Shown here: positions 55,288 to 55,320 of the stretch, piece by piece
Layout: every line of letters starts with the position of its first letter
How positions within the stretch are numbered: the stretch's first letter is position 1
Assembly: GCA_937930175.1 (NCBI GenBank)
Contig: CALGLP010000022.1
Location: 161,360-225,359 of the forward strand
DNA length: 64,000 nucleotides
Origin: an uncultured bacterium
GTDB lineage: Bacteria; Omnitrophota; Gorgyraeia; Zapsychrales; Aceulaceae
Direction of reading: 5' to 3'
Translations under genes and position numbers: made by a program
Notes under the pieces: model-generated
The model's input: the letters and a program-made list of their open reading frames with translations, nothing else
Told to the model about the DNA's origin: nothing
Database searches by the model: none

Positions 55288-55320
55288 TTGACATCTCAAT
55301 CGTTATATCGTAATATAACG
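55288..55320 (+). promoter_or_regulatory. Sigma70 promoter of trxA with an 8-4-8 inverted repeat over the -10
   Basis: -35 TTGACA 55288-55293, 17-nt spacer, -10 TAATAT 55311-55316. CGTTATAT-CGTA-ATATAACG at 55301-55320. Confidence 0.55.

Follow-up and report, generated by a model that had tools for sequence, protein, structure and literature searches.

Introduction

The ArsR superfamily of transcriptional regulators still holds large clusters with unknown inducers (bioRxiv 10.64898/2026.05.15.721447). Among its thiol-responsive members, the persulfide-sensing proteins SqrR, BigR, HlyU and YgaV fall in cluster 4 of a sequence similarity network (SSN); proteins of the SqrR/BigR type carry two Cys residues per protomer, which are presumed to release DNA by forming an intraprotomer (poly)sulfide bridge, and their genes have rhodanese and sulfur-transporter neighbours (PMC10509353). 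RexT of Nostoc PCC 7120, an H2O2-sensing ArsR protein controlling trxA2, uses a Cys at the start of helix alpha3 that touches His75 and Asn77 of the beta2 wing, and oxidation disrupts this helix-wing contact (PMC8960804). Members of the RexT cluster (SSN cluster 6) lie near NADH oxidoreductase genes (PMC10509353). Here we analyse a 64,000-nucleotide stretch of contig CALGLP010000022.1 from an uncultured Omnitrophota bacterium (hereafter the window, meaning the whole stretch), in which an operon that starts with the thioredoxin gene trxA, and that includes the gene of an ArsR-type regulator with two Cys residues, has an inverted repeat over its promoter. The comparative evidence indicates that this palindrome is very probably the operator of that regulator, encoded 2.7 kb downstream (57999-58259).

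The placement of a repressor on the -10 element is in itself a textbook design. The regulator clade, its Cys topology and its operator consensus, on the other hand, appear to be undescribed: a literature search for the 12-bp operator core returned only one unrelated poliovirus paper, and a search linking the fusion of coenzyme A disulfide reductase (CoADR) and rhodanese with an ArsR protein found nothing. The locus yields a concrete operator consensus, together with a regulon, for a so far uncharacterised clade of ArsR proteins found widely among uncultured anaerobes (Omnitrophota, Planctomycetota, Spirochaetota, Bacillota and others). The clade is tied to CoADR-rhodanese (with TusA and DsrE) and thioredoxin, presumed handlers of coenzyme A (CoA) persulfide and polysulfide, about whose control in most anaerobes little has been learnt. 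It also offers a natural case of one DNA specificity across ArsR proteins with different sensory sites, arsenic-type in the Bacteroidota and two-Cys here. Furthermore, the promoter, operator and repressor form a trio that can be rebuilt in Escherichia coli, a rare route to what uncultured candidate phyla sense.

An array of 8-bp units lies on the promoter

A sequence-only reading of this DNA had placed a perfect 8-4-8 inverted repeat on the -10 element of a TTGACA-17-TAATAT promoter, and both were found. Positions 55288-55323 read TTGACA TCTCA ATCGTTATATCGTAATATAACGAT T, within the longer stretch cTTGACAtctcaATCGTTATATCGTAATATAACGATtaattg at 55287-55328, and in a promoter scan across 54800-58500 the TTGACA-17-TAATAT pair was the top promoter-like site, agreeing with the consensus at 10 of 12 positions. 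Sigma-70-type promoters have hexamers 16-18 nt apart and a gene downstream, and here the trxA ATG follows at a distance of 53 nt. The repeat finder showed the repeat to be larger than first described, the 8-4-8 element being only the inner part of a perfect 11-4-11 repeat that spans the area between TTGACA and TAATAT and overlaps both the promoter spacer and the -10 hexamer.

It is the length of the arms that sets this repeat apart. In Markov simulations of the window, about 13 perfect repeats per 64 kb are expected by chance with arms of at least 8 bp and a spacer of at most 8, so that the 8-4-8 repeat alone would be unremarkable, and 0.2 are expected with arms of at least 11 bp. The remaining long perfect repeats of the window form G+C-rich hairpins resembling terminators, while the one at 55298-55323 is A+T-rich and sits on a promoter. 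No Rfam family matched at the repeat.

When set beside homologous loci, the 11-4-11 repeat can be seen as one reading of an array of 8-bp units. In the window, units of the form ATCGTWAT follow each other in the order forward, forward, reverse and, in degenerate form, reverse (55299-55330), filling the promoter spacer and covering the -10 hexamer; the array likely reaches the transcription start. The dyad that is conserved in the family is 16 bp long and centred on 55314/55315, which is 4 bp to the right of the centre assigned by the sequence-only reading (55310/55311). Seven of its eight pairs are complementary in the window, and all of them in three relatives (L011, L012 and L016).

Further copies had been anticipated upstream of 57999 or 58275, a prediction that failed. 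Neither the 26-mer nor the 8-N4-8 pattern, each allowing up to three mismatches, has a second copy in the 64-kb window beyond its own site, and the family matrix described below assigned 37.1 bits to this site and 8.8 bits to the runner-up position, the 99% null being 16.4 bits. The element is therefore single in the window, and it is conserved in related genomes.

The element is conserved in close relatives with and without trxA

Loci encoding an ArsR protein about 80% identical to the window protein (up to 81%) were fetched. Three of them (L012, L013 and L014) have the gene order of the window and carry TTGACATTTGTATCGTTATATCGTAATATTACGAT upstream of trxA. In L011 (GCA_035358335.1), trxA, the DUF302 gene and the CoADR gene are absent and TTGACATCCGCATCATTATATCGTAATATTACGAT is retained; there the element heads the gene of a 114-aa Cys-rich protein, whose protein cluster weakly matches C_GCAxxG_C_C (19 bits, cut-off 27), followed by the ArsR gene and the block of genes starting with an MMPL transporter. 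Since L011 keeps the element without the trxA cassette, the element belongs to the regulator/exporter operon and not to trxA, the first gene here, and the trxA-DUF302-CoADR cassette is a variable insert behind a conserved promoter. Between the CoADR and ArsR genes of L012, positions 9945-9990 hold an N-terminal remnant of the Cys-rich protein gene (ARSYYLGKN...). The complete gene occupies that place in L011 and L015, and what is left of it in L012 testifies to gene turnover downstream of the conserved promoter.

An alignment of three promoter regions from relatives with an 81%-identical ArsR protein showed TTGACAT and ATC.TTATATCGTAATAT.ACGAT to be invariant and the flanks to have diverged. 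For these relatives it is the 16-mer formed by ATCGTAAT and ATTACGAT that makes a perfect palindrome, and the 11-4-11 pairing is broken. Which of the two is perfect depends on a single A/T difference at window position 55317.

The operator-like array accompanies the regulator family across phyla

An alignment of 40 homologues of the window regulator (A1) was used to fetch 80 loci, one genome per species, and the counts that follow are over 83 loci. Their regulators show 45-81% identity, and the phyla represented are Omnitrophota, Planctomycetota, Spirochaetota, Elusimicrobiota, Bacillota, Desulfobacterota and others. Scanning for the pattern located ATCGTWWTAWWACGAT-like sites adjoining the regulator in most of them. 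The family consensus, in the order forward, forward, reverse, reverse, is ATCGTAAT ATCGTAAT ATTACGAT ATTACGAT, with ATCGTAWT as the unit and ATCGTAWT/AWTACGAT as the core dyad. In the majority of homologous loci TTGACA occupies positions -18 to -13 counted from the 16-bp dyad, and this fixed distance places the -10 hexamer (TAWTAT) at dyad positions 5-10, its centre. The 8 bp on either side, which had no part in site selection, are likewise conserved as units (TATCGTAAT on the left and ATAACGAT on the right), the right-hand unit having A17 in 33, G22 in 26, A23 in 32 and T24 in 31 of 39 aligned sites.

A symmetric 32-bp matrix was applied with a threshold of 16.4 bits, corresponding to the 99% per-locus null, and a site exceeded it in 59 of the 83 loci. 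Among these 59, 26 had not been used in matrix building, and 25 of the 26 have a site at a promoter position. The sites occupy three places only: 35-105 bp 5' of the ArsR start, just 3' of the ArsR stop, or the head of the operon. Those past the stop codon, where the motif occurs without TTGACA, precede genes for thioredoxin, a C_GCAxxG_C_C-like protein, CoADR or an SBF permease. Those at the operon head lie 2.5-2.8 kb upstream, right before the CoADR or thioredoxin gene of an operon that the ArsR gene closes, as in the window and throughout the Bacillota. In some loci the ArsR gene stands alone between two sites. A census of exact half-sites returned start-to-start spacings of 19 (13 cases), 11 (8) and 27 (3), together with direct repeats at 8 (11); these fit three- and four-unit arrays and are compatible with more than one dimer stoichiometry.

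The commonest neighbour over the 83 loci is CoADR-rhodanese (31), which in the Bacillota takes the form of an 820-aa fusion with TusA and DsrE, followed by thioredoxin (17) and by the block of MMPL, LolA-like, 423-aa and YgaP-like transmembrane (TM) proteins (12). Further neighbours include TolC with AcrB, C_GCAxxG_C_C-like proteins, DsrE, a Sulf_transp-glutaredoxin fusion, SBF permeases, CCG-domain oxidoreductases and, in a clade with only weak sites, Mrp antiporter genes. The neighbours are mostly machinery of sulfane sulfur and of thiol-disulfide exchange. The regulators associated with Mrp form a sub-clade from Planctomycetota and Bacteroidales (L038, L040, L045, L049, L050, L063, L080, L093 and L095), encoded inside Mrp/Mnh Na+/H+ antiporter operons between the genes of subunits E and F, with weak operator-like sites right past the stop codon.

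The same dyad precedes regulators of Bacteroidota arsenic operons

A scan of metagenome contigs that started from the motif, in the exact form ATCGTAWTAWTACGAT, gave at least 120 matches, and an ArsR-family gene was present in the fetched stretch for 42 of the 120 matches listed. In nearly all of these 42, the site lies 43-108 bp before the start of the ArsR-family gene or just past its end (274-329 bp beyond the start). Two of the 42 listed are Omnitrophota-type regulators of 54-60% identity followed by MMPL. Most of the 42 show a regulator identity of merely 34-46% and possess C-x-C and C-Y-C motifs; the genes downstream of these encode ArsM, ACR3, ArsC and an acetyltransferase, which identifies them as arsenic-resistance operons of the Bacteroidota type. 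Exact copies of ATCGTAWTAWTACGAT stand 45-85 bp upstream of arsR in Bacteroidota-type arsenic operons on L112, L113, L118, L154, L156, L166 and L211, and the Bacteroidota site looks like an undescribed ars operator which the two-Cys clade also has. The ArsR proteins of these ars operons have Cys at both positions equivalent to C30 and C69 of the window regulator.

The core of the motif is also part of a longer palindrome, TGCAAATCGTAWTAWTACGATTTGCA, that recurs on L101, L108, L115, L129, L136, L143, L155 and L202 (Ga0265299 and Ga0310696). No ArsR gene was present in the fetched stretch of these contigs, and the longer palindrome may be a different element or have another binder.

Taken together, the two surveys bear out the core of the sequence-only reading. 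That the palindrome serves as a repressor operator is supported by its conservation in diverged relatives whose flanks have drifted and by the sites in 59 of 83 homologue loci. The proposal that the two-Cys ArsR-like protein is the cognate binder likewise gains support from these 59 loci and from the 42 of 120 listed metagenome matches. What computation shows is the presence of the element, its place on the promoter and its co-occurrence with the regulator family across phyla; from these we infer binding.

The two-Cys regulator and a proposed mechanism

The window regulator is a member of the ArsR/SmtB family by its matches to PF01022 (HTH_5; E 3.2e-11) and NF033788 (79.2 bits, cut-off 55), and its homologues are labelled Candidatus Omnitrophota by their sources. 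An AlphaFold2 model (mean predicted local distance difference test score of 89.3) has the element order alpha1-alpha2-alpha3-alpha4-beta1-beta2-alpha5, with helices at residues 3-13, 16-28, 32-39, 43-55 and 75-85 and strands at 59-64 and 67-72. Foldseek comparisons gave TM-scores of 0.8-0.9 to PagR, HlyU, BigR, CzrA and NolR. The recognition helix reads LPQSTISQHL in the window protein and LPQSTVSQHL in the clade consensus. Only two Cys residues are present, which the model locates in the alpha2-alpha3 loop at the N-terminus of alpha3 (C30) and in the middle of beta2 (C69), and both are invariant across the 40 homologues of alignment A1. The topology of the fold, the RexT work and the Cys pattern of the Bacteroidota proteins together suggest that C30 and C69 could be neighbours in space.

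Additional conserved Cys residues (RLCIV in alpha2 and QECL at the end of alpha3) were observed in a group of Bacillota regulators (L054, L058-L060, L068, L072, L081, L083, L086-L089 and L094), whose genes sit behind the 820-aa CoADR-rhodanese-TusA-DsrE fusion. C69 is lost in L060 and in a few further Bacillota members outside that list. The sensory site of the Bacillota proteins may differ, for instance as a four-Cys metal or cluster site.

We propose that the reduced regulator dimer would bind the central 16-bp dyad, whose CG cores are spaced by 10 bp and so point to the same side of the helix, and that a second dimer or a higher-order complex would probably use the flanking units. The bound repressor would exclude RNA polymerase and silence trxA, the DUF302 and CoADR-rhodanese genes and its own gene, in a form of negative autoregulation, and repression would probably extend to the MMPL, LolA-like, 423-aa and YgaP-TM genes. 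Derepression would follow from chemical modification of the two invariant residues, Cys30 where helix alpha3 begins and Cys69 on the beta2 wing strand; the likeliest modification would be a disulfide or polysulfide bridge generated by persulfides, polysulfides or other thiol oxidants. Such a C30-C69 bridge would disturb the helix-wing packing required for DNA binding, and the induced proteins would reduce and remove sulfane sulfur and disulfides. The stoichiometry, the inducer and the extent of the transcript are elements of this scheme that we infer. Thiol- or sulfane-sulfur-based induction is the option towards which we lean slightly, and the explanation as a whole, comprising operator, repressor and thiol-switch mechanism, we judge to be reasonably probable.

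A broader reading, which joins several proposals, can be put forward only tentatively as a whole. According to it, the two-Cys proteins may constitute an unrecognised, phylum-spanning ArsR class that senses reactive sulfur or thiol stress in anaerobes through a helix-to-wing (poly)sulfide switch, built from a Cys at the alpha3 N-terminus and one in beta2 and unlike those of SqrR/BigR and RexT. They would act on a 32-bp operator of four 8-bp units bound by two dimers, and would have originated from an As(III)-type ArsR protein by the loss of one Cys per pair, with the DNA specificity kept. In the Omnitrophota, the CoA-persulfide reductase and thioredoxin might thereby be coupled to MMPL/LolA-like/outer-membrane export, possibly of hydrophobic sulfur species.

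Weighing the evidence

Several observations weigh against the proposed operator, repressor and thiol switch. The support for binding and regulation is comparative throughout. The Cys positions are unlike those of any characterised thiol-sensing ArsR protein (alpha2 and alpha5 in SqrR/BigR/HlyU, vicinal in alpha3 in RexT), and the chemistry is therefore extrapolated; nor is the sensing site uniform in the family, some Bacillota members having extra Cys without C69. No above-threshold site exists in 24 of the 83 loci, and 14 of the 83 are devoid of any site adjoining the ArsR gene or its operon, while in 10 of the 24 the best score of the whole 8-16-kb locus falls just past the ArsR stop. A single dimer does not explain the 8-bp phasing of the units. 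Lastly, the 16-bp dyad is common to the ArsR proteins of Bacteroidota ars operons, encoded beside ArsM, ACR3 and ArsC. At least two ArsR clades with different sensory sites thus share it, which means that the motif marks DNA specificity and not the inducer, and cross-binding by a paralogue is possible.

The alternative that survives best would leave operator and regulator unchanged and replace the inducer by a metal or metalloid held on two thiolates, such as As(III)/Sb(III), a trivalent organoarsenical (methylarsenite, for example) or a soft metal. Two-Cys ArsR proteins selective for methylarsenite are known. The dyad of the two-Cys clade is identical to the operator-like site of Bacteroidota ars operons, the Cys residues of the Bacteroidota ArsR at the C30 and C69 places suggest a metalloid site there, and four homologue loci encode an SBF-family permease, from the Pfam family that includes ACR3. 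However, arsC, arsM, arsB/acr3, arsA and arsD are all missing from the recurrent neighbours of the two-Cys clade, which are dominated by enzymes and carriers of sulfane sulfur and by thioredoxin; just one Cys of the C-x-C motif is retained, and no arsenic-resistance gene was found in the window operon. We regard a metalloid inducer as unlikely.

It is far less probable that the physiological binder is another factor, for instance an ArsR paralogue with the same recognition helix encoded elsewhere, and that the ArsR protein encoded in cis regulates something else. The sharing of the motif by two or more clades with different sensory sites would allow for this, but dozens of unrelated genomes have the site at fixed promoter positions beside this regulator clade, there are loci in which the ArsR gene alone lies between two sites, and in L011 the operon with the regulator gene starts directly behind the element.

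Hardly any weight can be given to the notion that the symmetry is a by-product of an A+T-rich promoter, or of chance, with RNA polymerase as the sole binder. Some of the conservation is that of a promoter, since the -10 hexamer forms the middle of the dyad, and perfect inverted repeats with 8-bp arms are as common as the simulations indicate. Arms of 11 bp or more are not, and no promoter element accounts for the CG dinucleotides, conserved at constant spacings of 8 and 10 bp; moreover, the motif is also found past ArsR stop codons without TTGACA and tracks ArsR genes in the scan that started from the motif. Just as implausible is an RNA hairpin in the trxA 5' leader acting on stability, attenuation or translation, for although a perfect 11-bp stem could form if transcribed, the start predicted from the promoter (~55322-55325) would leave most of the repeat untranscribed, the stem is A+T-rich and without an Rfam match, and compensatory pairing is absent, relatives breaking the 11-4-11 pairing and keeping the 16-bp dyad, with conservation that follows the DNA units and their distance from the -35 hexamer. 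Chance, a promoter by-product, an RNA hairpin and a foreign regulator are all contradicted by the co-occurrence data, and binding of the array by the two-Cys regulator remains the preferred reading.

The operon and its surroundings

Eight genes on the forward strand, separated by short gaps, follow the promoter (Table 1). The CoADR-rhodanese protein scores 443 bits against NCBIfam TIGR03385, under the cut-off of 579, and its domains would be consistent with a persulfide/polysulfide-reductase type of enzyme. Pfam and NCBIfam searches identified no arsenic-resistance gene in the operon. The genes at 58275-63063 are probably the distal part of the ArsR operon, and the block that they form (MMPL, LolA-like, 423-aa and YgaP-TM) lies behind the ArsR gene in every close relative (L011-L016). 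The conserved block that precedes the ArsR gene is kept in four relatives, in which the upstream gene encodes CoADR or the Cys-rich protein, and the operator matrix finds no match in it. This block may act as an internal promoter for the ArsR and MMPL genes, one that would supply basal repressor while the main promoter is shut.

Table 1. Coordinates of the promoter, the operator-like array and the genes of the operon in the window
Feature	Position	Strand	Evidence
-35 hexamer TTGACA	55288..55293	+	Promoter scan; invariant in three diverged relatives
Perfect 11-4-11 inverted repeat AATCGTTATAT-CGTA-ATATAACGATT	55298..55323	unstranded	Repeat finder
Operator unit 1, ATCGTTAT, forward	55299..55306	+	Sequence reading; left flanking unit kept in family alignment
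16-bp family dyad ATCGTAAT/ATAACGAT (units 2 and 3)	55307..55322	unstranded	Family alignment
-10 hexamer TAATAT	55311..55316	+	17 nt past the -35 hexamer; promoter scan
Degenerate operator unit 4, TAATTGAT	55323..55330	-	Family consensus ATWACGAT
trxA, thioredoxin, 106 aa	55369..55689	+	Pfam PF00085 E 2.9e-33; TIGR01068 125.5 bits (cut-off 96.8)
DUF302 protein, 160 aa (start as in identical contigs)	55717..56199	+	Pfam PF03625; gene call in L001
CoA-disulfide-reductase-like flavoprotein-rhodanese fusion, 567 aa (start as in L001)	56223..57926	+	Pfam Pyr_redox_2, Pyr_redox_dim, Rhodanese
Conserved block TTTTGTGATAAAATAACATTTT with extended -10-like TGATAAAAT	57962..57983	+	Just 5' of the ArsR ribosome-binding site
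ArsR/SmtB-family regulator, 86 aa, GTG start	57999..58259	+	Pfam HTH_5; NCBIfam NF033788
MMPL/RND transporter	58275-60794	+	Pfam/gene calls
LolA-like protein	60791-61570	+	Pfam/gene calls
423-aa protein, weak sub-threshold DUF1302 match	61572-62843	+	
YgaP-like TM protein	62884-63063	+	

Upstream of the promoter lie the [FeFe]-hydrogenase maturase genes hydF, hydG and hydE. The spacer between the hydE stop and the promoter (55017-55230) has a predicted folding energy of -97.1 kcal/mol, compared with -62.8 for shuffled sequences (z = -8.06), and contains a perfect 13-bp G+C-rich hairpin at 55045-55071. It matches no Rfam family, is absent from L011 and L012 and occurs solely in contigs that are identical to the window, which come from ERZ724081-86, SRR3330207-12 and ERR7850083/85. 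It may represent a group of terminators, an inserted element or a small RNA. Elsewhere in the window, perfect 12-18-bp G+C-containing hairpins flanked by A/T runs were observed at 12059-12090, 22118-22181 and 35132-35168 (e.g. AGAAAAAGGGCTAGCAGATTCTGCTAGCCCTTTTTCT) and are probably bidirectional intrinsic terminators. The sole Rfam match of the window at gathering threshold is a cobalamin riboswitch (RF00174) on the forward strand at 30130-30287 (57.4 bits, E 1.3e-11).

Comparison with known systems

With SqrR, BigR, HlyU and YgaV, the window regulator shares the ArsR fold and, in the scheme proposed here, the homodimer and an operator that overlaps the promoter of a sulfur-detoxifying operon. 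The genomic association of the SqrR/BigR type with rhodaneses, sulfurtransferases and sulfur transporters also recurs in the two-Cys clade, in the form of CoADR-rhodanese (31 loci), DsrE, the Sulf_transp-glutaredoxin fusion and the YgaP-like TM protein, a type of domain known from the E. coli ygaVP operon. The alpha2 and alpha5 Cys pair, in contrast, is absent: Glu23 occupies the place of the BigR alpha2 Cys, and alpha5 (75-85) has no Cys. The BigR NCBIfam equivalog scores 48.9 bits on the window regulator, versus a cut-off of 155. The operators differ as well, that of SqrR having the consensus ATTC-N8-GAAT and that proposed for the window clade being ATCGTA-N4-TACGAT with units phased by 8 bp.

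The likeness to RexT lies in a thiol-switch ArsR protein that represses a thioredoxin gene and has a reactive Cys at the N-terminal end of alpha3, features that are here proposed by analogy. The vicinal Cys40-Cys41 pair of RexT, which forms a disulfide within alpha3 and whose Cys41 occurs in all proteins of the RexT type, is replaced in the window regulator by a lone C30 followed by Asn, with the other Cys in beta2. Similarity to the RexT structure 7TXM is weak (E 1.3e-7 versus 1.6e-21 for PagR), and the RexT switch has been reported as essentially cyanobacterial, whereas the two-Cys clade spans anaerobes of many phyla.

PagR, from Bacillus anthracis pXO1 (PDB 2ZKZ), is the nearest solved structure by sequence, and with a TM-score of 0.87 and a root-mean-square deviation of 1.6 A it gives the best superposition among the top Foldseek hits, in which it ranked second to the As(III) ArsR protein 6J05. 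Its recognition helix, LPQSTVSQHL, is the consensus of the two-Cys clade. PagR has Ala and Tyr at the places of C30 and C69, however, and the window regulator scores 60.3 bits against the PagR equivalog NF052532, whose cut-off is 170. No consensus operator is known for PagR (PMC9570423). A PagR-type operator was considered and rejected, as no site was found near the pXO1 pagR gene or a Bacillus thuringiensis PagR-like gene (best score 12.8, below the 16.4-bit threshold). With no site near these PagR-type genes, the motif cannot be taken for a box common to PagR proteins. Nor did any site pass the matrix threshold at an ArsR locus on a Hymenobacter plasmid.

Regulators of other families control comparable genes. 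CstR, a CsoR-family protein of the Firmicutes, controls CoA persulfide reductase in Enterococcus. The MarR-family protein BmoR of Bacteroides fragilis represses the gene of the same four-domain CoADR-rhodanese-TusA-DsrE enzyme and is linked to thioredoxin expression and to thiol/disulfide balance (PMC6158253). Compared with the window regulator, BmoR and CstR have analogous promoter targets and belong to unrelated protein families with unrelated operators.

Classical As(III) sensors of the ArsR family are marked by a C-x-C or three-Cys metalloid site and by neighbouring ars genes such as arsB/acr3, arsC or arsM. Those of the Bacteroidota type differ from the two-Cys clade in sensory residues and setting. 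The window regulator has the first Cys of the C-x-C motif only, and neither its operon nor the recurrent neighbours of the clade include ars genes. The Bacteroidota proteins contain four Cys residues (C-x-C and C-Y-C) and are encoded in ars operons, and the two-Cys clade retains one Cys per pair and is associated with sulfur and thiol genes. Common to both is the DNA itself, the same ATCGTAWTAWTACGAT standing at the same distance upstream of the regulator gene.

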